A stretch of 42,596 nucleotides of DNA from Chloroflexota bacterium (lineage in GTDB: Bacteria; Chloroflexota; Dehalococcoidia; SM23-28-2; RBG-16-64-32). How positions within the stretch are numbered: the stretch's first letter is position 1; each line of letters begins with the position of its first letter. The position numbers were made by a program, and so were the translations under genes. The notes beneath the pieces were generated by a model. The model was not told where the DNA came from, searched no databases, and saw only the letters and a list, made by a program, of their open reading frames with translations. The DNA is taken from the NCBI GenBank assembly GCA_005880075.1, contig VBJT01000001.1:4379-46974 (forward strand), in the 5' to 3' direction. Shown piece after piece: positions 17,264 through 28,584 of the stretch.

Positions 17264-18694
17264 ATGATGCGACCGGTAATGAGCGACGGGCCGGTACGCA
17301 AGGAGAAGGACTCGATGGGGGAAATGGACGTCCCGGCAGACGCCTACTATGGAGCCTCAACTCAGCGCGCCGTCCTCAATTTCCCTATAAGCAGCCTTCG
17401 CCTGGGCCGGCCGTTCATTCGCGCCCTCGGCCTCATCAAACTCGCGGCCGCCCGCGTCAACGCTGACCTTGGCCTGTTAGAACCACGCATCGCCGATGCG
17501 ATTGCGACTGCGGCGAAAGAGGTCGCAGATAGCAAGCTCGACAAGCACTTCGTGGTCGACGTCTTTCAGACCGGGTCCGGCACGTCGACGAACATGAACG
17601 CCAACGAGGTCATCGCGAACCGGGCGAGCGAAATCATGGGCGGTGAGCGCGGCTCCAAGACCATCCATGCAAACGATCACGTCAACCTGGGTCAGTCCTC
17701 GAATGATGTAATCCCGACCGCCATCCACATCTCGGCGCTGCTCGAGATAGAGGAACGCCTCATCCCCGCTCTGCAGCGGCTCCAAATCGCTCTTGAATCG
17801 AAGTCAAAGGAGTTCTGGGATGTCGTTAAGACCGGCCGCACTCACCTTCAAGACGCAACGCCGATCCGTCTCGGCCAGGAGTTCCTCGGTTATGGGGGCC
17901 AGATCGAGCGCGGGATCAAACGCCTCCGTCGCGCCCAAGAAGAGCTATCGGAAGTCGCGCTGGGTGGCACCGCCGTCGGCACTGGCATCAACACGCACCC
18001 GGAGTTCGCTTCGCGCGTCTGCACCGTGCTGGCGCAGGAACTGGGGGTGGCCATTCGTGAGAGCGATAATCACTTTCAGGCGCAGAGCACTCTGGACGCC
18101 GTTCTCGAGGCGAGCGGTTCCCTGCGTACCGTCGGCGTCAGCCTTCAAAAGATCGCGAACGACGTCCGCTGGCTAGGCTCGGGCCCGCGCGCCGGCCTCG
18201 GCGAGTTGGCGCTGCCGGAGGTGCAGCCTGGCAGCTCGATCATGCCCGGCAAAGTCAATCCGGTCATCGCCGAATCGCTGATCCAGGTGAGCGCGCAGGT
18301 GATAGGCTGCGACGCCGCAATCGCTCAGGCAGCGCAGGGCAGCTATTTTGAGCTCAACCTGATGCTGCCAGTGGCGACATACAATCTGCTCGAGGCGATC
18401 GAACTCCTGGCTTCCGCGAGCCAGAACTTCACTGAGCGCTGCGTTGAGGGCCTAGGCGCCACGCCTCGCGGCCCGGAGATAGTCGAGCGCGGACTGATGC
18501 TCGCTACTGGCTTGGTGCCGGCCATTGGCTACGACGCCGCGGCTGACGTCGCCAAGGAAGCGGCGAGGACTGGGCGCACCATCCGCGAGGTCGCGCGCGA
18601 AAAGACAGACTTGTCCGAGGACCAACTCAACCAACTGCTCGACGCCGCGAAAATGACGGCGCCCCGCCTCGACCCGGGACCCCTCTCGGGCTAG
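17264..18694 (+). CDS. fumC: Class II fumarate hydratase
   Basis: KEKDSMGEMDVPADAYYGASTQRA N-terminus, FQTGSGTSTNMNANEV, and the GSSIMPGKVNP signature. The long 5' extension of the track ORF is a shadow of the divergent gene. The start could be the ATG at 17264, 17267 or 17279. Confidence 0.9.
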   Translation: MMRPVMSDGPVRKEKDSMGEMDVPADAYYGASTQRAVLNFPISSLRLGRPFIRALGLIKLAAARVNADLGLLEPRIADAIATAAKEVADSKLDKHFVVDVFQTGSGTSTNMNANEVIANRASEIMGGERGSKTIHANDHVNLGQSSNDVIPTAIHISALLEIEERLIPALQRLQIALESKSKEFWDVVKTGRTHLQDATPIRLGQEFLGYGGQIERGIKRLRRAQEELSEVALGGTAVGTGINTHPEFASRVCTVLAQELGVAIRESDNHFQAQSTLDAVLEASGSLRTVGVSLQKIANDVRWLGSGPRAGLGELALPEVQPGSSIMPGKVNPVIAESLIQVSAQVIGCDAAIAQAAQGSYFELNLMLPVATYNLLEAIELLASASQNFTERCVEGLGATPRGPEIVERGLMLATGLVPAIGYDAAADVAKEAARTGRTIREVAREKTDLSEDQLNQLLDAAKMTAPRLDPGPLSG

Positions 18695-19632
18695 CGCGCC
18701 CGCGGGTCGAGAGCGTCCCTTAGCCCGTCGCCGAGGAACGTGAAGCAGAGCATTAATAGCGCCAGGGTGCAGGCCGGGAACAGAACAAGGTAGATGTTTG
18801 ACCGGATGTATGCGTAGCCATCATAGATGAGCCGTCCAAGGCTCGCCGTAGGCGGCGGGAGCCCAATTCCTATGTAAGCGAGGACCGCTTCTGCGAAGAT
18901 CGCCAGCGGGATGCCGAAGACGATAGCGACAATCACAGGACCAAGCGTATTAGGAAGCATGTGCTTGAAGACGATTTGGAACGAGGAAGCGCCCATGGAT
19001 CGCGCGGCAATGACGAAGTCGCGCTCCTTGAGCGAAAGCATCTGACCGCGCACGAGGCGGGCTACTGTCACCCAGGCAACGAATGAGATTGCGAAGATCA
19101 CGAGCAGACGCTGGGATGTGTCGTGCCCCACGAGAGGCAGGTCGCGATCCACGAAGGCGGCCCTGAGCAGAATGATCGCGAGAAGGTCGGGGAAAGCGTA
19201 GAAGAGATCGGTCATACGCATCATGATGTTGTCGAGCGTCCGCCCGCCCAGCGCGGCCGTGCCACCCACGAAAAGTCCAATCGCCAGCACTATGACCTGT
19301 ACGCCCAGTCCAACTTGAAGCGAGATGAGCGTACCTTCCAGGACGCGCGCCCATGTATCTCGCCCCAGATTGTCTGTGCCAAAGAAATTATGACTTGAAG
19401 GACCCTCCTGAATGTGCGTGTAGTCCTGGGCCGAGGGGCTGTAACGCTGAACGCCGCCGACGGTGTTTCCGAGAATCGAAACGATTAGCAAAACCGCCAG
19501 GACTATTAGCGCCATCATCGCCAAGCGATTCTTTATCAGCCGCCGGAAGGCATCGCTCCAGAGGCCTCGCTCCCGCCTCCTGAGCTCCCCCCCGACGAGC
19601 CATTCGCGTTCGACGGCTTCTTGCGCTTGCAA
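18691..19632 (-). CDS. Peptide/nickel-type ABC importer permease (DppC/OppC-like)
   Basis: Six-helix pattern with a permease EAA-loop region FVIAARSMGASSFQIVFKHMLPN. Confidence 0.9.
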   Translation of the reverse strand: MQAQEAVEREWLVGGELRRRERGLWSDAFRRLIKNRLAMMALIVLAVLLIVSILGNTVGGVQRYSPSAQDYTHIQEGPSSHNFFGTDNLGRDTWARVLEGTLISLQVGLGVQVIVLAIGLFVGGTAALGGRTLDNIMMRMTDLFYAFPDLLAIILLRAAFVDRDLPLVGHDTSQRLLVIFAISFVAWVTVARLVRGQMLSLKERDFVIAARSMGASSFQIVFKHMLPNTLGPVIVAIVFGIPLAIFAEAVLAYIGIGLPPPTASLGRLIYDGYAYIRSNIYLVLFPACTLALLMLCFTFLGDGLRDALDPRAR

Positions 19633-19644
19633 CCTAGGACGACC

Positions 19645-20565
19645 TCACTGGTAACGGATCCGCGGGTCCACGACTGCGTACAACAGGTCGACAATCAAAT
19701 TGGCGATCGCAATAACGGCGGCATAGAAGAGGGTTGTCCCCATGATCAGCCCATAATCCCGTTCAGAGACAGCCGCGACAAACCGCCGGCCAACACCATT
19801 GATCTGAAATATCGTCTCCGTGATAAAGGAGCCGGTAACAAGGAAGGCGAAGATCGGCCCAATCACCGTGAGCACGGGGACCATTGCGTTCTTGATCGTG
19901 TGCCGGATAACCACGATCCATTCGGCGAGGCCCTTGGCTCGCGCCGTGCGGATGTAATCCTGGTTCAAGACCTCGAGCAGGCTCGCTCGTGTAATACGGG
20001 CGATGTAGGCGGCCGGAAGCACCCCTAGGGTCAAAACTGGAAGCACCATCTTATGGTAATTTCCGAACTCCCAACCGAGCACATCAAACCACCCTAGTTT
20101 TACTGAGAAGACGATCACGAGGAAACTGCCGATAACGAAGCTGGGCATCGCCGTGCCGGCGGTCGCGAAGAATACGCCTAGGTAGTCTGGAAGTTTGTTG
20201 TGGTTTAACGCTGAGATCGTGCCCAGAGACATCCCCAAGAAGACGGCAAAGATGAAGGTGACAACGCCTAACTGAGCCGTCGTCTTCCACCCGTCTTTGA
20301 TCAGATCAAGCACTGGCTGCTGACTACGAAACGACACGCCGAGATCGCCGTGTGCGAGGTCCCAGAAGAAGAGGCCATATTGCTCGTAAAAGGTTTTGTC
20401 AAGGTTGTACTTTGCGTTTAAGTTGGCGACTACGGCCGGCGGAAGCTGTTTCTCCTGATCGAACGGCCCCCCCGGCACGATGTGCATGAGGATGAAGGTA
20501 ATCGTGGCCACCGCCCACAAGACGGGAATCATCCACAGGACTCGGCGTATCACGTAGCCGGTCAT
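19645..20565 (-). CDS. Peptide/nickel-type ABC importer permease (DppB/OppB-like)
   Basis: MTGYVIRRVLWMIPVL N-terminus typical of DppB/OppB. EAA-loop region IRTARAKGLAEWIVVIRHTIKNA. Confidence 0.9.
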   Translation of the reverse strand: MTGYVIRRVLWMIPVLWAVATITFILMHIVPGGPFDQEKQLPPAVVANLNAKYNLDKTFYEQYGLFFWDLAHGDLGVSFRSQQPVLDLIKDGWKTTAQLGVVTFIFAVFLGMSLGTISALNHNKLPDYLGVFFATAGTAMPSFVIGSFLVIVFSVKLGWFDVLGWEFGNYHKMVLPVLTLGVLPAAYIARITRASLLEVLNQDYIRTARAKGLAEWIVVIRHTIKNAMVPVLTVIGPIFAFLVTGSFITETIFQINGVGRRFVAAVSERDYGLIMGTTLFYAAVIAIANLIVDLLYAVVDPRIRYQ

Positions 20566-20591
20566 GGTAGTCGCATTATCGTGCTAACCAG

Positions 20592-20628
20592 CGGAAAAAG
20601 AAATACGGGAGCCCCCATCGGGCTCCCG
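20592..20628 (-). terminator. Stem-loop plus T-tract after the binding-protein gene (intra-operon attenuator or terminator)
   Basis: Minus strand reads CGGGAGCCC-GATGG-GGGCTCCCG (9-bp stem), followed by TATTTCTTTTTCC. Confidence 0.6.
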
Positions 20629-20654
20629 TATCCCTTCACGACTGCAGTCTCTCT

Positions 20655-22394
20655 CTACTTCGAGCGCCCCCAAGCCTCTGCTATCCAGTCGCCTGGGAGT
20701 CTTGTGTCCTGCGCGGTCGAGTTCTCCTTCATGCCTACGACATAGGGCTTAAGAATGTTGTTATTAGCCTCATGATAAGTAGGTGCGTAGCCGCACAGTC
20801 TCGTCGTGACGAGTTCGTTTATTTTCTTGTATTGATCCCGGCGCTCCGAGTCGTTCGTGTTGGTCTGGGCCTTGTCCGCAAGCGCGTCCACCTCGGGATC
20901 GCTGCACGCCGAGGTGTTGTTGCTGCCGCCAGTGGTGAACAGCCCGGCCGCATGTCCCATCCAGTCTTCGGGATCGGGGTAGTCCTGGATCCATCCGCTT
21001 CTCGGCGCCAATTCATAGTCGTGGCCGTTCAGGCGCTTCGAACGCGTTGGAGAGTCGGCCTGCTGGATCTCGGTTTCAATACCGAGCGTCGTCTTCCAGA
21101 CATTCTGCAAGAACTCCGCCTGAGCCTTCCCCTCGGGGGTATCCCGCACGAGCACGGTGAGTTTCGGGAAATCCTTCCCGAACTTCTCTCGGGCCTTTGC
21201 CAGGTTTTCCTTTGCCTTGTCCGGGTTGTAGCCGATCTGCTCTTGGAACGCATCCGGCGCGGCGCCGCCCACGCCCTCCGGCTGGAAGGTCGTCGTCGGA
21301 ACGTATGCTCCGCCGCAGCAGACTTTGATCATCTGATCACGGTCTATCGCCTGCGAAAGCGCCAGCCTGAACTCGAATATATCCAGCGGCGGGTGCTTCA
21401 GCTCCATCTCAACCGCCCTGGTTCCCGGGAGGATCGCCTGGAAGAATTCGTTGCCGAACTCAGACTTGACAGCATCCAGGTTGGCGATGTCCGCCGCGAC
21501 GACATCTAGCTCGCCGTTGCGGTAAGCGTTGTTAGAGACATCGTCCTTCTCGATGAAACGGATCACGATCTTGTCCAGCGTTGGCTTGATCCCATTCGGT
21601 GCCGACCAGTTGGGGTTCGGGACCAGGACTGCGCTGTCCTGCGGCTTGTAGTCCTGGATCATGTACGGCCCGTTGTATGCAAGGCTTGTGCTGGGCGGTG
21701 CCGGCCACTTCGCGCCCGGGTCCGGTAGCAGATGGGAGGGCACCGGGAAGTAGGTCCACATCGAAAGGAGCAGCTTGAAGGTCGGCTGGGCGGTCTTCAG
21801 CGTGAACTCGACCGTGTTGCCCGTAGCCTTCGCTTCCACTGCATTCTTCAGCGCCTCAAGTTCTTCAGGCGTCGGAGTCTTCGGAGCGTCCTTCGTCCCC
21901 TTTGCACCAAAGTACTCATCACAGCCCACAATGTTCGTGACGAACGACTGGTAGTTACTGGCAATATCAGGATTGCAAGCCCGCAAAACCGCGAGCTCGA
22001 AGTCCTTTGCCGTAAGCGGCTGTCCGTCTGACCACTTCAGGCCTTCCTTGACCTTGACTGTGTAAGTCAAGCCATCAGAGGACACCGTAGGCTCGCCGTC
22101 AGCCATTGCGGGCTGGGGCTTGTTGTCCTTATCCAACGTGTACAGACCGCGCCACAACATGCGCTCGAGGGATATGTCCTGGACAAAGTTCGAAAAATGA
22201 GGGTCTGTGGACTGGGGTTCGAGGTTCTGCACAGTAAGTGTGCCACCCTGGATTCGCTCACCCGCCCCACCTCCGCCGGGTGACGTCGTGCCCCCAGTTT
22301 TGTTCTCGTCACTGCTGCCGCAAGCAGCGAACGCCAGTATCGTCCCGATCGCCACGAGGGATAAGAGATAACCGCGCTGCTTAAGGAAACTCAT
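20655..22394 (-). CDS. ABC importer substrate-binding lipoprotein, family 5 (peptide/nickel)
   Basis: Lipobox LAFAACGSS and family-5 SBP length and pattern. The start is moved to the ATG at 22394 (MSFLKQRG...), which follows AAGGAG with an 8-nt spacer. Confidence 0.9.
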   Translation of the reverse strand: MSFLKQRGYLLSLVAIGTILAFAACGSSDENKTGGTTSPGGGGAGERIQGGTLTVQNLEPQSTDPHFSNFVQDISLERMLWRGLYTLDKDNKPQPAMADGEPTVSSDGLTYTVKVKEGLKWSDGQPLTAKDFELAVLRACNPDIASNYQSFVTNIVGCDEYFGAKGTKDAPKTPTPEELEALKNAVEAKATGNTVEFTLKTAQPTFKLLLSMWTYFPVPSHLLPDPGAKWPAPPSTSLAYNGPYMIQDYKPQDSAVLVPNPNWSAPNGIKPTLDKIVIRFIEKDDVSNNAYRNGELDVVAADIANLDAVKSEFGNEFFQAILPGTRAVEMELKHPPLDIFEFRLALSQAIDRDQMIKVCCGGAYVPTTTFQPEGVGGAAPDAFQEQIGYNPDKAKENLAKAREKFGKDFPKLTVLVRDTPEGKAQAEFLQNVWKTTLGIETEIQQADSPTRSKRLNGHDYELAPRSGWIQDYPDPEDWMGHAAGLFTTGGSNNTSACSDPEVDALADKAQTNTNDSERRDQYKKINELVTTRLCGYAPTYHEANNNILKPYVVGMKENSTAQDTRLPGDWIAEAWGRSK

Positions 22395-22448
22395 GTCGCT
22401 GTCTCCTTTCGACCTAACCCCTTCGCGCACCCGCCTATAGCACTCTCA

Positions 22449-22608: not shown

Positions 22609-23160
22609 CTAGAGGTTCGCGCGGGAAGGCTTCGCCGGCGCTCGCCGCGAACGCTGCACCCGCGGCAGGAACAAGTCGCCCAGCGTGACGACCAGCCCGG
22701 TCCCGATTACCAGGTCGCCGATGCTCAGGATCGGAACATAGACCGGGTTGTCGAATACCAGCCGGTCGGAGAGCACGTAGAACTTGGCGTCATCCTTGTT
22801 CTTCAAGACGTTCTTCGTCCGCGGTATAGCATCGCCTTCGGCACGACCGTCGATCCGGTGGAGCTGGTCTATTTTCGCGAGGCTCACGGCGGTGACCGGC
22901 ATCAACCCGCCGTTCGCTACGATCGGCAGAAAATTCAAAAGCAACCCGACGCCAATGATCAGAAAGCCGGGACGAGGGAGATTGACGATCGCGAAGAAGA
23001 TAAGAACCACGTACGACATTTCGAACAACAACCGCTTTGGCACATCGTCGAATCCAAGGGGGGCGAATATGGCGATGACTTGCATTGCCAAAGCAAAAAG
23101 CGCCAGCACTCCCGCCCTGATATGCACCCTGGGGAAGTGCAGGCGCAGTTCGCGCTTCAC
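22609..23160 (-). CDS. DUF5317-like integral membrane protein
   Basis: LLLNFLPIVANGGLMPV and C-terminal ILSIGDLVIGTGL resemble the DUF5317 pattern as I recall it. Four to five hydrophobic helices. GTG start. Confidence 0.55.
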   Translation of the reverse strand: MKRELRLHFPRVHIRAGVLALFALAMQVIAIFAPLGFDDVPKRLLFEMSYVVLIFFAIVNLPRPGFLIIGVGLLLNFLPIVANGGLMPVTAVSLAKIDQLHRIDGRAEGDAIPRTKNVLKNKDDAKFYVLSDRLVFDNPVYVPILSIGDLVIGTGLVVTLGDLFLPRVQRSRRAPAKPSRANL

Positions 23161-23231: not shown

Positions 23232-23306
23232 CTACGGCATGAAGCCGGCGACTGCAGAAGCCACAACCGCGCAAACGATGAGAAGTGAGGCTAACCGTGC
23301 GACCAT
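23232..23306 (-). CDS. Candidate 24-codon small ORF encoding a hydrophobic peptide
   Basis: My translation is MVARLASLLIVCAVVASAVAGFMP. The ATG is preceded by AAGGGGGG about 7 nt upstream. It lies just downstream of the promoter at 23353-23381 and upstream of the DUF5317-like gene. Confidence 0.35.
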   Translation of the reverse strand: MVARLASLLIVCAVVASAVAGFMP

Positions 23307-23352: not shown

Positions 23353-23381
23353 ATTAGATGGCCAATATATTGGCCTGTCAA
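23353..23381 (-). promoter_or_regulatory. Near-consensus sigma-70 promoter whose spacer is almost entirely a 16-bp perfect palindrome (candidate operator)
   Basis: Minus strand reads TTGACA (23376-23381), a 17-nt spacer containing GGCCAATATATTGGCC (23360-23375), then TCTAAT (23353-23358). Confidence 0.5.
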
Positions 23382-23492
23382 TGCTCTACTAGACAGATTC
23401 CGGAAAAGATTGCAAACTTCTTACAGTTTGGCGGGTTATCGTCAACAAACCAAGGGCGAATGGCCGGCGAAGCCGTCAGGGCCGGACCCGGT

Positions 23493-23777
23493 TCACCCGC
23501 ACCACGTCGCGACTAACGACGTAGCACCGGGTTCCTGTGAGATGTAGCGCATCAGGTGCAAGTCGGCTGTCGCGCAGCCGCCCAGGAGGACGTCGTGGCT
23601 AATGACGAACTGCCCGCCACCGTCCAGGGAAGGCTCTTCGCAGCCCGTCCCCTGGACGGAGCAGGCAGCAACGACCGGGGTAATTGATTCGGTTGAGGGT
23701 ATGTCTAAACGGATGGCTCCTGCCGCTGCGACCGCCAGAATTGATCCCGCAGCGACGACGAGCGCACGTGCTCGCAT
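23493..23777 (-). CDS. Small secreted protein with four cysteines (94 aa from the ATG at 23777)
   Basis: MRARALVVAAGSILAVAAAGA signal peptide, then a mature part of about 70 aa with 4 Cys. The track ORF (to 23819) would overlap the upstream small gene, so the internal ATG 7 nt after that gene's stop is preferred. Confidence 0.5.
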   Translation of the reverse strand: MRARALVVAAGSILAVAAAGAIRLDIPSTESITPVVAACSVQGTGCEEPSLDGGGQFVISHDVLLGGCATADLHLMRYISQEPGATSLVATWCG

Positions 23778-23784
23778 ACGCCGG

Positions 23785-23880
23785 CTAGAAGAGCGGGCTC
23801 TGGGCGGCGACGGCTGCAAGCGTCAAAGCGAGCAGAGTGACAATCCAGTTGAGCTTTGCCGTCTTGGTGATCAGGTCCAT
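23785..23880 (-). CDS. 31-codon prepeptide gene, copy 1
   Basis: My translation is MDLITKTAKLNWIVTLLALTLAAVAAQSPLF. GAGGAG SD lies 7 nt upstream of the ATG. It is a paralog of 24014-24109, and many of the differences between the copies are synonymous. Confidence 0.55.
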   Translation of the reverse strand: MDLITKTAKLNWIVTLLALTLAAVAAQSPLF

Positions 23881-23920
23881 CGTTCGTTCTCCTCGGATCT
23901 CGGTTCTCTCGTCTGTCGCT

Positions 23921-23964
23921 AGTTTCTCAGGTGGTTCTCGCCAAAATCTCGCCGGAAACTCGCC
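23921..23964 (-). promoter_or_regulatory. Three GGCGAG direct repeats at 11-bp phasing plus a conserved TGAGAAACT (candidate activator-dependent promoter of copy 1)
   Basis: Minus-strand GGCGAG at 23959-23964, 23948-23953 and 23937-23942. TGAGAAACT (23921-23929) lies 7 nt downstream of the proximal repeat. Confidence 0.45.
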
Positions 23965-24013
23965 ATAGCGGTCCGGACGAGAAATGGTGCTTAGTTTGCC
24001 GTCTACTTCTGCC

Positions 24014-24109
24014 TTAGAAGAAAGGGCTCTGCGCAGCCACCGTTGCCAGTGCTACGGCAACGAGCGTCACCACCCAGTGAAGCCGTATCGTCTTTGCGCT
24101 AAGGTCCAT
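24014..24109 (-). CDS. 31-codon prepeptide gene, copy 2
   Basis: My translation is MDLSAKTIRLHWVVTLVAVALATVAAQSPFF. GAGGAG SD lies 7 nt upstream. It has the same length and architecture as copy 1. Confidence 0.55.
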   Translation of the reverse strand: MDLSAKTIRLHWVVTLVAVALATVAAQSPFF

Positions 24110-24148
24110 CGCTTCGTCTCCTCGACTGCCGGTTCTCTTTCTGGTCCG

Positions 24149-24181
24149 AGTCTCTCAAAGCGCTCTCGCCGAAATCTCGCC
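24149..24181 (-). promoter_or_regulatory. Two GGCGAG direct repeats at 11-bp phasing plus a conserved TGAGAGACT (candidate activator-dependent promoter of copy 2)
   Basis: Minus-strand GGCGAG at 24176-24181 and 24165-24170. TGAGAGACT (24149-24157) lies 7 nt downstream of the proximal repeat, the same geometry as copy 1. Confidence 0.4.
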
Positions 24182-24416: not shown

Positions 24417-27400
24417 TTATCTGCCGCTGGCTATCTGCCGCTGCAGTTCGTCGAAGCTGGCCACATCGTCACCCATCTCTTCGGCCCCAAGCACCTGTAC
24501 GTAGCGTTTGTAGCAGAACTTGGCTGCTTCGCTCTGGCCAGAAAGAACATAATTGCTCATCAGCCGGTACCAGGCCGCTTCGTTATACTCATCGAGCTCC
24601 AGGATCCGCTGGCAGATGTCCGCGCTCCGCTTGTACTCTTTCGCGTCGCTGAACACAGTGGCGAGTGTCGTCAAAATGCTCATGTGCTGCTCAGCCAGCT
24701 GCCACCGCAGCGTCTCCGCCCACTCCGAGTAGAAGTCCATGGCAAATGACCCGCTGTAGAGCGCAAGCGCCTCCTCCATCAGAGCAGTCGCTTCAGCGCT
24801 ACCCTTCGACACGCGACCCGCTTCCGCCAGGAGCTGCTGGAAGCGCTCGACATCAAACGCGAACTCGCTTCGCGGGTCAAGGATGTAGCGCCCCGAGTCT
24901 TTGGCGATACATTCCGAGTATAAGGCCTTGCGTAGCCGGTACATGTTCGAGTGGAACGCGCTTGTCGTTTTCTCGTCCGGAAGGTCGGGCCAGAGAGCGG
25001 CGACGATCTCCTCTTTGCGCAGCGGTCTCCTGTTGCAGAGGAAGAAGAAGAACATCTCCTTGCTCTTCTCGCTTCTCCACTCGAGGTCCGTGATTTCCCG
25101 GCCGGCAAGCTCTACTCTCACGTTTCCGAACCCATAGGCATGGACCGCGGCCTCGATCTGCGCCTCGGGCTGTGATTCAATCGCCTCAGCTTGCACTGGC
25201 GCGGCCGCTTTTCGCGGGCCCTTCATCGTCTTGAGCAGCCGCCCGAAGTATTCCCCGGCAAGCTTATTGGCCGCAGCGTACTGTACGAGAAGCGGGTTGC
25301 GCGCCGCCTCCAGGCGCACGAAGTGGTCGTATCCCAGCTCCGAAACCAGTGTTGCCACTTCCTCGAGCGCCTCCAGCGCCAGCTTTTTACGCTTCAGCGA
25401 GAAATGTACGCTTGCCAGGTGAAATAATGCGGTCGCCAGCTCCCGCTTGGCGTCACTGTCCCTCAGCAGGTTGACGGCGCGCTCGATCGCGGCCGTGGCT
25501 GCCTTTAGATCACCGGAGTCGCGCTTAATTAGACCGAGAGTTGTCGACGAGACCCCGAGCTCGAGAGTCCCCCCCTTTTCTTCAGCCAATGCAAGGGCCC
25601 GCTGGGCCCACGCCTCGGAGTTGGCCGCGTCTCCCATCAACCGATAGGTCTTTGCTACACCGTCGGAGATATAGCTGCTGATTAGCACCTCGTCCATTGT
25701 CTGAGCCAATCGCAGCGCTTCAAAGTAGAGTTCGTTTGCCAGTGCGTACTCGCCCCGGTCCCGTTTAACATCAGCTAGATTTTGACGGAGGTACATTTCG
25801 GGCCTCGCGTTGCTGAGAGGCCCGGCCCTATCCAGTCCTTCCCGAAGCGCCGTTTCGGCCTGGTCAAACTCGCCCTGGAGGTAATAGAGCACGCCCAAGT
25901 TGTTGACGGTGCGCAGGTGGGCTGCATCGTTGCGGAGCTTCAGCCAGCACTGTCTCGCCCGTTCGAAATAGATGGCCGCGTCGGCGAGCCGACCCATCTG
26001 AGCGAGCGCGATGGCAAGGTCGTCCGCAACCGCGGCTACGTTGTAGACGTCTCCTTTTGCTTCGTAAATATCGAGAACGCCCCGTAGTTCGGTCTCCGCC
26101 TGCTTGAGCTCGCCGCACCAGTTGAGTGAAATGCCCAGCTGCTTTCTTGCCTCCGTAAGTAGGGGCGCCGGTCCATCGTGTGCCAGGAGAAGCGCTTCAG
26201 CCTTCTTTAGCGCCTGTTTGGAGGCCTCGTGGTCCCCCTTCGCGCGCAGGCACATACCTTCGATTACCAGCGCTTCCGCCTGCAGCGCCCACTCCTGGCT
26301 CGCCTCGAACGAAGCGATAGCGCGCCAAAGGAGATTGAGCGCAAGGTCAATCTGGCTCACGTTGTGTAAGATGCGAGCCTTCCAGAGCATTAGCTTCGGC
26401 TGTCGCGCGAGTTGCTCGTCTGGTACCGCATCGAGCCATTCGGCCAGCGTGTCCCAGCGTCCCTCTTCGAACATTTGCCAGCCCACACGGTCCGTCACCT
26501 GCACGATGCGCTCCCAGCCGCCCGCCTGGATGTAGTGATAGACCGCCTCTTCCCACTGTTCGGCTTTCTCCATCAGCTCGGCGGCCCGAAGATTCAGCTC
26601 GCGGAAGCGCTCCGGCTGCTGGCTGCGGAGGTGACTTACGAGAAACGCGCGGAACAGCCGGTGATAGCGAGTGCGCCTACCGTTCGTTTCTTCCGTTAGG
26701 ACGAACAGGTTCAACCGTCGCAGCTGATTTAGGCGGGCCTCGGCGTCCGTTACAGCGAGCAGTTCGTCCAAGAACTGCTCATCCAGCCAGCGCGGTATCG
26801 CGCTGCCGGTCAGGAACTCCTTGAGGTCGTTTGGTAGCGGATCGAACTGCTCGAGCTTGACGTACTGAAACAGCGTGTCCGAGCCGCGAAGGTGCTCGAG
26901 CGAAATGGCCGTTCGGCTCATCTGCACCCTGTCCGCCAGCAAGACGAGCGCGCCTGCCCACCCTTCCGATACGTCGGCCAGGTGCTGAGCGTCATCGAGC
27001 GAGACTTCCCTTCGGAGCACATCGCGAAAGAGATGCACGACTTCTTCGCAGGTAAAGGAAAAATCGGTCGCGCCGATAGTGTCCACCTCCTGGCGGACAG
27101 ACATGAGCGGAAGTATTCCGAGCTGGGGCTGCGTCCGCCCGGAGAGGATGACGTGGCAGTCCGGGGGCAGGCGGTAGAGCCAGCCTTCGATTATCTGCGT
27201 CAGTTCGGGCTCCGCCTCGTCTAGGAAGTGGAAGTCATCAAGGATAAACGTCAAGGGCGGACCCGCTTGCATAGCTGAGACTAGCAGCTCTACTGCGCGC
27301 TCAGGTTCAACCGGGTCGCCCATCGCAACGGCGGCGGCCAGCTCGAAGGCAAAATCCGGTTGCCGCTCGCGCCCCGAAGCAACCAGATAACGCAGGAACA

Positions 27401-27782
27401 TGCCGGGGTCACGGTCACGCTCGTCGAGGCTATACCAGCAGACCGGGTCCCTCGCGCCCTGCGCAAAGTCCAGGAGAAGCGTAGTCTTGCCGTAGCCCGC
27501 TGGAGCGCTCACCAAGGTTATCCTTCGCTCGCGTGCGTGCGAAATCGCTTCTATGAGGCGCCGGCGCCTTACGATCGCCGGGCGGCGGACAGGCAGGCGC
27601 ACCTTGGAAGGGTATGGGACTTCCAAGGCGCTATGACCCCGTTTACGGGTCTCTGCGGTTTCTGTCATCTCACCCCGGTCTATAGGGACTGTCCCACTCG
27701 TCTGAACTAAAGACGTGGACGCGAGGTTGGTGTTACGAATCAACAACGAAAGATTTATCGATGGGCCGGGTAAGCGATTCAT
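24417..27782 (-). CDS. Large transcriptional regulator: MalT-like STAND P-loop ATPase, then TPR array, then C-terminal SARP module (OmpR-type winged helix plus BTAD)
   Basis: Walker A in RITLVSAPAGYGKTTLLLDF, and Walker B-like TFILDDFH. A long TPR region follows. The C-terminus has LEWRSEKSKEMFFFFLCNRRPLRKEEIVAALWPD...YRLRKAL (wHTH), then a BTAD pattern (ALALYSGSF...AAWYRLMSNYVLSGQSEAAKFCYKRY). The start is possibly the ATG at 27668 (MTETAE...) behind GGGGTGAG. Confidence 0.85.
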   Translation of the reverse strand: MNRLPGPSINLSLLIRNTNLASTSLVQTSGTVPIDRGEMTETAETRKRGHSALEVPYPSKVRLPVRRPAIVRRRRLIEAISHARERRITLVSAPAGYGKTTLLLDFAQGARDPVCWYSLDERDRDPGMFLRYLVASGRERQPDFAFELAAAVAMGDPVEPERAVELLVSAMQAGPPLTFILDDFHFLDEAEPELTQIIEGWLYRLPPDCHVILSGRTQPQLGILPLMSVRQEVDTIGATDFSFTCEEVVHLFRDVLRREVSLDDAQHLADVSEGWAGALVLLADRVQMSRTAISLEHLRGSDTLFQYVKLEQFDPLPNDLKEFLTGSAIPRWLDEQFLDELLAVTDAEARLNQLRRLNLFVLTEETNGRRTRYHRLFRAFLVSHLRSQQPERFRELNLRAAELMEKAEQWEEAVYHYIQAGGWERIVQVTDRVGWQMFEEGRWDTLAEWLDAVPDEQLARQPKLMLWKARILHNVSQIDLALNLLWRAIASFEASQEWALQAEALVIEGMCLRAKGDHEASKQALKKAEALLLAHDGPAPLLTEARKQLGISLNWCGELKQAETELRGVLDIYEAKGDVYNVAAVADDLAIALAQMGRLADAAIYFERARQCWLKLRNDAAHLRTVNNLGVLYYLQGEFDQAETALREGLDRAGPLSNARPEMYLRQNLADVKRDRGEYALANELYFEALRLAQTMDEVLISSYISDGVAKTYRLMGDAANSEAWAQRALALAEEKGGTLELGVSSTTLGLIKRDSGDLKAATAAIERAVNLLRDSDAKRELATALFHLASVHFSLKRKKLALEALEEVATLVSELGYDHFVRLEAARNPLLVQYAAANKLAGEYFGRLLKTMKGPRKAAAPVQAEAIESQPEAQIEAAVHAYGFGNVRVELAGREITDLEWRSEKSKEMFFFFLCNRRPLRKEEIVAALWPDLPDEKTTSAFHSNMYRLRKALYSECIAKDSGRYILDPRSEFAFDVERFQQLLAEAGRVSKGSAEATALMEEALALYSGSFAMDFYSEWAETLRWQLAEQHMSILTTLATVFSDAKEYKRSADICQRILELDEYNEAAWYRLMSNYVLSGQSEAAKFCYKRYVQVLGAEEMGDDVASFDELQRQIASGR

Positions 27783-27807: not shown

Positions 27808-28575
27808 TTAGGCGCGGCCTTGCTGCTCGAGGCGGCGGCGGCGCTGCGCTAGGAGCCGGCTGTACAGCAGTAGATCGGCGTCGCTGTAGACGGCGTCGCC
27901 CATCTCGCTGCCTCGCTTCAGCGATTTCATCGTCGCTTTCGTTAGCGCGACAGGCAGCGGCGGGTTCGCGATGATGCGCTCGGCAAGCTCACGCGCCATC
28001 CGCTCCTCTTCCTCATCGGCGGAAACGTGGGTAACGAGACCGTACTCATAGGCCTTTTCCGCGCTGAACCGATCGCACGTGATCGTCAATTCGAGTGCGC
28101 GCGCGTGGCCCATTTCACGGGCGAGGCGAGGAAGCGCGTTCCAGCCGAGCGGCAGGCCGAGCTCAACCTCGGGAATCGAAAACCACGCCGATTCCCCGGC
28201 GACCCGGAGGTCGCAGCACGCCGCGAGGACCAGCGCGCCGCCGATGGCGAAACTCTGGACCGACGCGATCGTGATCTGGTCGAGCCCCTCGATCGCCGCT
28301 GAAGTGCGACTCCCGATTCCAGACATGTGCCGGACTTCCAGCTCGTTGGCCGACGCTGATTCGCGCCACTCGCTCGTGTCCGCCCCGGACGAAAAGACGC
28401 CGCCCTCACCCCCGAGGATCACCACTCGGGTCTCGAAGTCGTCAGCCAGCGCTCGGCAGACCGCCTGCACCTCGAGATGCATCTGCCGGTTGATGGCGTT
28501 CTTTTTCTCCGGCCGGTTGAACCGCACCAGCATCAGAGCATCCTGGCGCTCGACCTTTAGCGTCTCGTATTTCAT
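27808..28575 (-). CDS. Enoyl-CoA hydratase/isomerase (crotonase) family protein
   Basis: LVRFNRPEKKNAI, GGEGGVFSSGADTSEW and the crotonase fold pattern. The ATG at 28575 is one codon inside the track GTG. Confidence 0.85.
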   Translation of the reverse strand: MKYETLKVERQDALMLVRFNRPEKKNAINRQMHLEVQAVCRALADDFETRVVILGGEGGVFSSGADTSEWRESASANELEVRHMSGIGSRTSAAIEGLDQITIASVQSFAIGGALVLAACCDLRVAGESAWFSIPEVELGLPLGWNALPRLAREMGHARALELTITCDRFSAEKAYEYGLVTHVSADEEEERMARELAERIIANPPLPVALTKATMKSLKRGSEMGDAVYSDADLLLYSRLLAQRRRRLEQQGRA

Positions 28576-28584
28576 CACGCTCGC

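Follow-up and report, generated by a model that had tools for sequence, protein, structure and literature searches.

A candidate SARP-type direct-repeat promoter at small genes beside a MalT-like regulator in uncultured Chloroflexota

The DNA analysed here is a 42.6-kb stretch of contig VBJT01000001.1 from a Chloroflexota bacterium (42,596 nucleotides, referred to as the window), on the minus strand of which the gene for a large MalT-like regulator is followed by two small genes, each preceded by GGCGAG direct repeats spaced 11 bp apart and by a -10-like element. A preliminary description of this DNA had proposed that the repeats are binding sites for the SARP module with which the neighbouring regulator ends. 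The features on which this proposal turns are given below in the order in which they are met along the minus strand.

24417 to 27782, minus strand: regulator gene, an open reading frame (ORF) of 1121 aa with a MalT-like STAND ATPase and winged-helix domain, TPR repeats and a C-terminal SARP module
24417 to 25169, minus strand: the SARP module (residues ~872 to 1121), located by Pfam BTAD, by matches to AfsR and by an AlphaFold model
24165 to 24181, minus strand: GGCGAG pair of promoter 2 (24176 to 24181 and 24165 to 24170), GGCGAGATTTCGGCGAG
24149 to 24157, minus strand: extended -10-like element of promoter 2, TGAGAGACT; predicted start at about 24142
24014 to 24109, minus strand: small gene 2, 31 aa, MDLSAKTIRLHWVVTLVAVALATVAAQSPFF, with the Shine-Dalgarno sequence GAGGAG
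23959 to 23964, minus strand: distal (third) GGCGAG of promoter 1, predicted to lie at about -50 to -45
23948 to 23953, minus strand: middle GGCGAG of promoter 1, 11-bp unit GGCGAGATTTT, predicted to lie at about -39 to -34 and to replace the -35
23937 to 23942, minus strand: proximal GGCGAG of promoter 1, predicted to lie at about -28 to -23
23921 to 23929, minus strand: extended -10-like element of promoter 1, TGAGAAACT, made up of TG, one base and GAAACT; predicted start at about 23914
23785 to 23880, minus strand: small gene 1, 31 aa, MDLITKTAKLNWIVTLLALTLAAVAAQSPLF, with the Shine-Dalgarno sequence GAGGAG 8 nt upstream; annotated in public assemblies
23493 to 23777, minus strand: sec94, 94 aa, a secreted-looking, Cys-rich protein, starting 7 nt past small gene 1

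Read on the minus strand, promoter 1 runs GGCGAG-TTTCC-GGCGAG-ATTTT-GGCGAG (23964 to 23937), AACCACC and TGAGAAACT (23929 to 23921), while promoter 2 runs GGCGAG-ATTTC-GGCGAG (24181 to 24165), AGCGCTT and TGAGAGACT (24157 to 24149). The three repeats reported for the first copy and the two for the second match base for base, with a start-to-start distance of 11 bp throughout. The TGAGA[AG]ACT element said to follow 7 nt after the proximal repeat does so at exactly that distance in both copies, and its reported interval of about 40 nt to the ATG is 40 nt at small gene 1 (ATG at 23880) and 39 nt at small gene 2 (ATG at 24109). The pattern GGCGAG-N5-GGCGAG has three matches in the window, all at these two promoters, compared with a mean of 0.06 in shuffled versions of the window, none of which reached three (0/100). 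Allowing one mismatch added two further matches, both within ORFs and both lacking the downstream motif. No sigma-70-type -35/-10 pair was detected at the two small genes, with no TTGACA-like hexamer 16-18 nt upstream of the -10-like element. The absence of a -35 at the repeat promoters is meaningful, since a canonical TTGACA promoter is used in the same loci before the gene pair pepC-DUF5317 that lies further downstream (see below).

Conservation of the arrangement was assessed in 31 loci from species-representative genomes, all of them metagenome-assembled genomes of Chloroflexota/Dehalococcoidia, which were found via the regulator protein alone and amount to 278 kb. The GGCGAG-N5-GGCGAG pair stands ahead of small genes in 24 of these 31 orthologous loci, and all 57 exact pairs recovered from both strands of the 278 kb (57/57) are on the strand of the regulator and no more than 1 kb past its stop codon, where a hexamer frequency of 1.15 per kb per strand would give about 0.7 chance pairs in the whole 278 kb. 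Neighbouring GGCGAG hexamers in these regions are 11 bp apart in 57 cases, 10 bp in six and 12 bp in four. Nearly every cassette is preceded by the motif (tTTc)GGCGAG-aTTTc-GGCGAG-AGnnnnc-TG-n-[GC]A-n-ACT(G), and 43 non-redundant sites yield the consensus tTt.cGGCGAGAtTtcGGCGAGAgg.g.cTG.gA.ACTG, in which the information is limited to the repeats, the A after each of them, the T-rich spacer and the -10-like block, the flanks being uninformative. Among 52 promoter-proximal pairs picked by their repeats alone, TGnnAnACT follows 7 nt past the proximal repeat in 50 and 8 nt past it in the other two, against a background of 2.4e-4 per position. A third upstream repeat with at most one mismatch is present in ~40% of the non-redundant sites (7/172 in a control window), with 11 bp as the preferred spacing within a range of 9 to 14 bp. 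The suggestion that the repeats are functional promoter sites thus gains from a footprint, made up of repeats and -10-like motif, that is conserved at small genes. In several loci a terminator hairpin lies between the regulator gene and the first repeat, so that the two would be separate transcription units, and in most loci the gene order is kept as regulator, peptide cassettes, sec94, pepC, DUF5317 and an OppA-like binding protein with permeases.

In pattern form the site can be written GGCGAG-N5-GGCGAG-N7-TGNNANACT, and a metagenome scan with a composite pattern returned at least 80 loci, about 63 of the 80 listed sharing the arrangement, with the regulator upstream, the same genes downstream, or both. 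Among the matches listed, about six look like chance occurrences, lying inside long ORFs and lacking the T-rich spacer, six (the L057/L086 group) have a convincing site before an unrelated 141-aa gene, and one (L043, at 4963) has a convincing site before a Flp-type pilin gene. The 141-aa gene, MSNRVIVMVSDLDDASHGEINVLE..., is divergent from a gene of ~1000 aa (L057 at 3630 and L086 at 3897; also L041, L052, L074 and L116).

The SARP module reported at the end of the regulator was recovered in several ways. Pfam BTAD (PF03704) matches residues 976-1104 with E 4e-14 and a score of 53.6 bits (cutoff 22.1), rising to 58 bits on the isolated C-terminus, a phmmer alignment with the AfsR SARP domain (E 1e-9) spans the winged helix, including the region of the recognition helix, as well as BTAD, and positions 23-187 of the NCBIfam AfsR model are matched by the C-terminus with E 7e-20. 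The 250 C-terminal residues were modelled with AlphaFold (pLDDT 76) and the model was compared with the PDB by Foldseek; the top six matches, the only significant ones, were AfsR (8k60, 8hvr) and EmbR (2ff4, 2fez) with E 1.7e-10 to 2e-8, ~250 aligned columns and TM 0.60-0.64, the remaining matches being generic TPR proteins with E 3e-3 or worse. Pfam Trans_reg_C taken alone is sub-threshold on the regulator (E 0.015), so that the winged helix is assigned from the AfsR alignments and the fold. The N-terminal half is matched by the NCBIfam MalT model (E 2e-72, residues 58-527, below the equivalog cutoff) and Pfam matches comprise AAA_16, TPR_MalT and, as a precomputed match, WHD_MalT, with TPR repeats in the middle of the protein. 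No LuxR/GerE domain was found in the regulator with Pfam, the C-terminus being the SARP module.

Homologues of the regulator number more than 1000 at E <= 1e-20 and, where the source is named, all come from Chloroflexota/Dehalococcoidia metagenomes. Across an alignment of 25 homologues, whose identity to the window protein is 55-86%, the winged-helix segment hardly varies, so that regulators only 55-60% identical overall nevertheless keep a near-invariant DNA-binding segment, which matches the invariance of the repeat. The ORF in the window extends 38 codons (27668-27782) beyond the start of its homologues and, because these are ~1083 aa long, translation probably begins in fact at the ATG at 27668, for a protein of 1083 aa. 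As annotated, the ORF begins 25 nt after the stop codon of an enoyl-CoA hydratase gene (27808-28578), a neighbour that is kept in several loci.

In published SARP sites, direct repeats with a spacing of 11 or 22 bp extend over the -35, and some 8 bp separate the 3' repeat from the -10 (PMC10936776, PMC7040171); another formulation has two or three heptamers with 4-nt spacers overlapping the -35 (PMC10972967). The afs box (-40 to -19) consists of two 11-bp repeats on which the SARP protomers of AfsR sit side by side, and structures of AfsR with RNA polymerase show contacts to the first 8 bp of each repeat, to sigma region 4 and to the polymerase core (PMC10936776). The fit to this binding logic asserted in the preliminary description holds for the 11-bp direct repeats and may extend to the short fixed gap to the -10-like motif, itself a predicted -10. 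GAAACT and GAGACT would then be the -10 hexamers and, with TG one base upstream, would form extended -10 elements, a reading that the conserved A2 and T6 of GAnACT and the conserved TG both fit. On this alignment the 11-bp units would begin at about -39 and -28, compared with -40 and -29 for AfsR, and end at about -29 and -18, with a further unit near -50, which places them within 1 bp of the afs box, and transcription would start near 23914 and 24142.

Other ways of parsing the same bases were tried and rejected. A sigma-54 promoter was considered on account of the CTGGCA-N-TGC of some lineages, which has a -24/-12 look; the distance from GG to GC is off by one, and the GG is missing in most lineages, the window included. 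Taking GGCGAG itself as a -35 hexamer would leave spacers to the -10 of 10 or 21 nt. Nor is the -10 a fourth, degenerate repeat, as the GAGA that TGAGA shares with the repeat in the window is not conserved and is replaced by TGGCA in other lineages.

Taken together, the motif, its position and the domains of the regulator make it likely that the GGCGAG repeats serve as operator to a promoter that depends on an activator, and that the SARP modules of the adjacent regulator read them. The promoters of the small genes would combine an extended -10 of the form TGn[G/C]AnACT with no usable -35 and would depend on an activator. The 11-bp units, each a GGCGAGA followed by four nucleotides of T-rich spacer, would number two or three and share a single helix face, at about -28 and -39 and in some cases -50, each being taken up by one SARP module (OmpR-type winged helix plus BTAD), the modules standing side by side. 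In place of the contact between the -35 and sigma region 4 these modules would recruit RNA polymerase, as AfsR does at the afsS promoter. The MalT-like STAND ATPase and the TPR sensor would gate binding through ligand- and ATP-dependent oligomerisation, a step included because of what is known of MalT and AfsR. The predicted output is two leadered transcripts, one starting at ~24142 and encoding peptide 2, the other starting at ~23914 and encoding peptide 1 and sec94. A positive feedback loop had been suggested in addition; direct autoregulation finds no support, as no repeat pair was found upstream of the regulator gene in the window or in the other loci. Any feedback loop would therefore run through the peptides.

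Several points weigh against this reading. Binding, activation and start sites are all predicted, and for organisms that are uncultured. The identification of GAnACT as a -10 draws on just its position and the conserved A2 and T6, and the gap between repeat and hexamer is 9-10 bp, according to how the unit is drawn, and 9 bp when counted from the heptamer, against the textbook 8. Three orthologue loci (L011, L027 and L028) have no repeats beside the regulator despite ample downstream sequence, and the same holds for the fragment L036 and for L034, whose regulator is a 33%-identical relative. The family-like sites that have no regulator in view suggest that the regulon, or the set of proteins reading the motif, may be wider than the adjacent pair, and the metagenome set, having been chosen by the pattern itself, is unusable for conservation statistics.

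Those distant sites also bear on the possibility that the repeats are read by some other protein that binds 11-bp repeats over the -35, for example an OmpR/PhoB-type response regulator encoded elsewhere, with the linkage to the STAND-SARP gene having another cause. OmpR-family winged helices generally bind phased direct repeats, and some family-like sites are far from any regulator gene in view. Against this, each exact site in the 278 kb of regulator-anchored loci is just 3' of the regulator gene, the DNA-binding segment of the regulator hardly varies within the family, nor does the repeat, and the window genes scanned with Pfam include no response-regulator gene, which makes a different reader unlikely.

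It is also conceivable that the regulator binds the repeats but represses, or plays an architectural part such as bridging tandem cassettes. The site overlaps the position of RNA polymerase, and STAND oligomers could span cassettes 130-230 bp apart. Promoters with no -35 would, however, be weak if unaided, and BTAD/SARP is an activation module, which in AfsR contacts sigma region 4 and the core from the same position. Repression or an architectural role is judged improbable, with the activating role proposed above preferred.

A further alternative holds that the repeats are by-products of a recent tandem duplication of the cassette and that the GGCGAG phasing has no function. The two cassettes in the window are indeed clearly paralogous, and hence are not independent copies, and copy number ranges from one to four between loci. 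Their coding parts nevertheless differ at 31 of 96 nt (32%), 18 of these differences being at third codon positions, a bias that fits purifying selection on real genes. Upstream of the repeats the DNA of the two cassettes cannot be aligned, yet none of the 12 positions of the repeat hexamers differs. Since the same motif with the same 7-nt distance also stands before three unrelated classes of ORF, in loci whose regulators are ~55% identical, a functionless by-product is highly improbable. That the repeats act as RNA, in a transcribed leader or as a small RNA, is scarcely credible: the idea arose from the intergenic, repetitive character of the region and has nothing specific in its favour, whereas there is no Rfam match, the repeats start right after the terminator hairpin of the regulator in several loci, and the conserved positions form a rigidly spaced motif of the DNA type with no covarying pairs.

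The closest functional parallel to the predicted circuit appears to be AfsR activating the adjacent small gene afsS in Streptomyces coelicolor (8hvr, 8k60). The two systems share a regulator that joins a SARP module to a STAND ATPase and a TPR sensor, two 11-bp direct repeats (in AfsR the afs box, -40 to -19, which overlaps the -35 and is bound by a side-by-side dimer; here predicted to take the place of a -35) and a target, predicted here, that is a small gene immediately 3' of the regulator gene, and AfsR is the best match of the C-terminal module in both sequence and structure. They differ in that the domain order is reversed, with the SARP module C-terminal here, and in the ATPase, which is of NB-ARC type in AfsR and MalT-like here. 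The host is a member of the Chloroflexota rather than the Actinobacteria, the repeat is GGCGAGA, and the targets are tandem arrays of ORFs of 24-45 aa as opposed to one 63-aa protein (AfsS).

The SARP-LAL regulators (PimR, SanG, FilR) likewise join a SARP module to a LAL/MalT-like ATP-binding half, and their sites are two or three heptamer repeats separated by 4 nt (PMC10972967). Their SARP module is N-terminal, whereas here the order is MalT-like half, TPR and SARP, and they belong to Streptomyces antibiotic clusters, whereas the Pfam scan of the window genes found no biosynthetic genes nearby. The remaining comparison is with MalT and the LAL family, as the N-terminal ~470 aa of the regulator align with MalT, including matches to WHD_MalT and TPR_MalT. 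In MalT, inducer and ATP drive oligomerisation and binding to repeated short boxes, and the activation logic of the regulator is presumed to be the same. The helix-turn-helix (HTH) of LuxR type at the C-terminus of MalT is replaced here by the SARP module, so that promoter recognition and polymerase contact should follow the SARP mode. In effect the regulator is of the LAL/MalT type with SARP substituted for the LuxR HTH, a mirror image of the SARP-LALs. A recent review regards SARPs as exclusive to Actinobacteria, with the module N-terminal in all classes (PMC10972967). The regulator, in which the module occupies residues ~872-1121 of 1121 and the host is a member of the Chloroflexota, does not match any of the classes described there (small, medium, large and SARP-LAL). 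A literature search found no paper on a SARP in Chloroflexota, nor on an RRNPP-like system in that phylum.

SARP activators are textbook switches of antibiotic production. The present prediction would extend SARP promoter logic to the Chloroflexota, with a sharp operator, a reversed domain order, a MalT-type engine and more than 1000 homologues (E <= 1e-20). It offers a regulator, an operator and a target at base resolution in a phylum for which almost no transcriptional circuits are known. To judge from these loci, the predicted circuit would be common to many uncultured soil Chloroflexota, having earlier been characterised only in Actinobacteria.

The small genes outside the window were located by ORF scanning of the regulator-anchored loci. 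The analysis brought out a family of more than 150 distinct micro-ORFs, mostly missed by gene callers. Directly 3' of the regulator gene, most loci have one to three small genes encoding hydrophobic peptides of 24-32 aa that end in ...ALALATVAAQSP[LF]F or ...VAGQS[AV]FI; across loci the copy number ranges from one to four and the cassettes are 130-230 bp apart. Three classes of ORF stand behind the same type of promoter, namely type A, type B and sec94 (~95 aa). Type A comprises the hydrophobic peptides (120 distinct sequences), among them the products of both window genes. Type B comprises hydrophilic peptides of 25-45 aa that start MKKQTRN[AM]IKW (34 distinct sequences) and is absent from the window; it occurs in loci L007, L009, L019, L021, L025, L033, L035 and L040, with a TRNAIKW..D.DG unit that is doubled in some. 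In being small, hydrophilic and internally repeated, type B peptides loosely recall AfsS. Pfam gave no match for the two window peptides or sec94, and NCBIfam gave none for those peptides of type A, type B and pepC that were run against it, for sec94 or for the DUF5317 protein.

No promoter specific to sec94 is present in the window; starting 7 nt after small gene 1, the gene is probably co-transcribed with small gene 1 from promoter 1. In the lineage typified by L013, sec94 has its own repeat promoter, and its N-terminus, MRLGLIVLFVALLLAAIAGQNSLL..., is very similar to that lineage's type A peptide, MRLSLLVVMVALALATVAGQSVFI. The similarity suggests that a type A product is a signal-peptide or membrane-anchor segment followed by ~5 extracytoplasmic residues; 'prepeptide' as a label for the small-gene products is a guess. 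In many loci the predicted 5' leader contains a short inverted repeat, CTGTGGCCACAG, CTGTGCACAG or CTGGCAaactggTGCCAG, just 3' of the -10-like element (for example L008 at 7547, L026 at 7384 and L013 at 6373), and it is weak or absent at both window promoters.

The nature of the type A peptides, which consist of a signal-peptide-like segment and a conserved five-residue tail (QSPLF, QSPFF or QSVFI), raises the possibility of a self-inducing peptide circuit. The products of 24-34 aa would be exported and trimmed, the tail would be re-imported by the OppA-type transporter and sensed by the TPR repeats, upon which the regulator would assemble into oligomers on the GGCGAG repeats and boost transcription of the tandem peptide genes. 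By analogy with known systems such a circuit may exist, but it is regarded as doubtful, and the export, processing and re-import of the peptides are speculative. The likeness is to the RRNPP systems (Rgg/SHP, PlcR/PapR, Rap/Phr), in which a cytoplasmic TPR-containing regulator is likewise found, here as a functional analogy only. The tiny hydrophobic peptide genes adjoin the regulator and are under its predicted control, the peptide C-terminus is conserved and an Opp-type importer adjoins. Four features in particular resemble Rgg/SHP, namely hydrophobic precursors with a conserved tail, tandem genes, a TPR regulator and an Opp-like neighbour. The regulator differs from the RRNPP proteins in having no homology to Rap, Rgg, NprR, PlcR or PrgX, with only generic TPR, MalT and AfsR matches in Pfam and NCBIfam, in carrying a SARP module where those proteins have an XRE-type HTH, and in being a STAND ATPase. 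Two findings count against peptide signalling: conservation of the transmembrane-like part of the peptides equals that of the tail, a pattern that would suit small membrane proteins just as well, and the Opp genes have their own promoter. Should the peptides signal to the regulator after all, they would represent a novel kind of peptide communication beyond the Firmicutes, in which uncultured soil Chloroflexota would have put together a functional counterpart of Rgg/SHP or PlcR/PapR from MalT and SARP components.

Beyond sec94 the window continues with genes whose association with the cluster is one of position.

23353 to 23381, minus strand: pepC promoter, TTGACA (23381-23376), a 17-nt spacer and TCTAAT; conserved
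23232 to 23306, minus strand: pepC, a 24-aa ORF, MVARLASLLIVCAVVASAVAGFMP; in other loci MKARLLYLAYSL..., 24-29 aa; very strong Shine-Dalgarno sequence resembling GGAAAGGGGG
22609 to 23160, minus strand: DUF5317 membrane protein, matched in Pfam by its own family only
18691 to 22430, minus strand: OppA-like solute-binding protein and two permeases, beside the cluster in most loci

The OppA-like gene has its own sigma-70-like promoter, TTGAAT-17-TATATT (22477-22449, minus strand), and these genes are linked to the cluster by position alone. The two permease genes follow it without ABC ATPase genes, and a fumarase gene converges on them at 18694.

The pepC gene directly precedes DUF5317 in nearly all loci, and the two are treated as context, their position not implying membership of the regulon. 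The DUF5317 protein has four predicted transmembrane helices and a small beta-rich domain, with the invariant residues N60, R63, N76, N83, G85, M87, P88, K116, D132, R133, S146, G148 and D149. The invariant D132-R133 and G148-D149 brought to mind an LspA-like aspartyl signal peptidase that would act on the small peptides, a candidate that was dropped as a PDB profile search did not support it and the best Foldseek match of a model with pLDDT 82 had E 4.4. Profile search and Foldseek revealed no structural or sequence relative of the protein in the PDB, and a literature search found no mention of it.

Three observations concern the DNA around the pepC promoter. Its spacer (23359-23375) is palindromic although the sequence varies, reading GGCCAATATATTGGCC in the window, TCCTAATATTATTAGGA in L018 and CCCTATGATATTAGGG in L013, with an equivalent in L026, and could be an operator or, if the region is transcribed, a hairpin. 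About 12 nt upstream of the pepC TTGACA, many loci have a single (c)GAGATTTC that is similar to one unit of the repeats. The sequence TTGAC[CG]ATAAC is conserved ~60 nt upstream of the pepC promoter (23436-23446 in the window, minus strand), and it also abuts the GGCGAG repeats in those metagenome loci where the site precedes another target (L041, L052, L074, L086 and L116).

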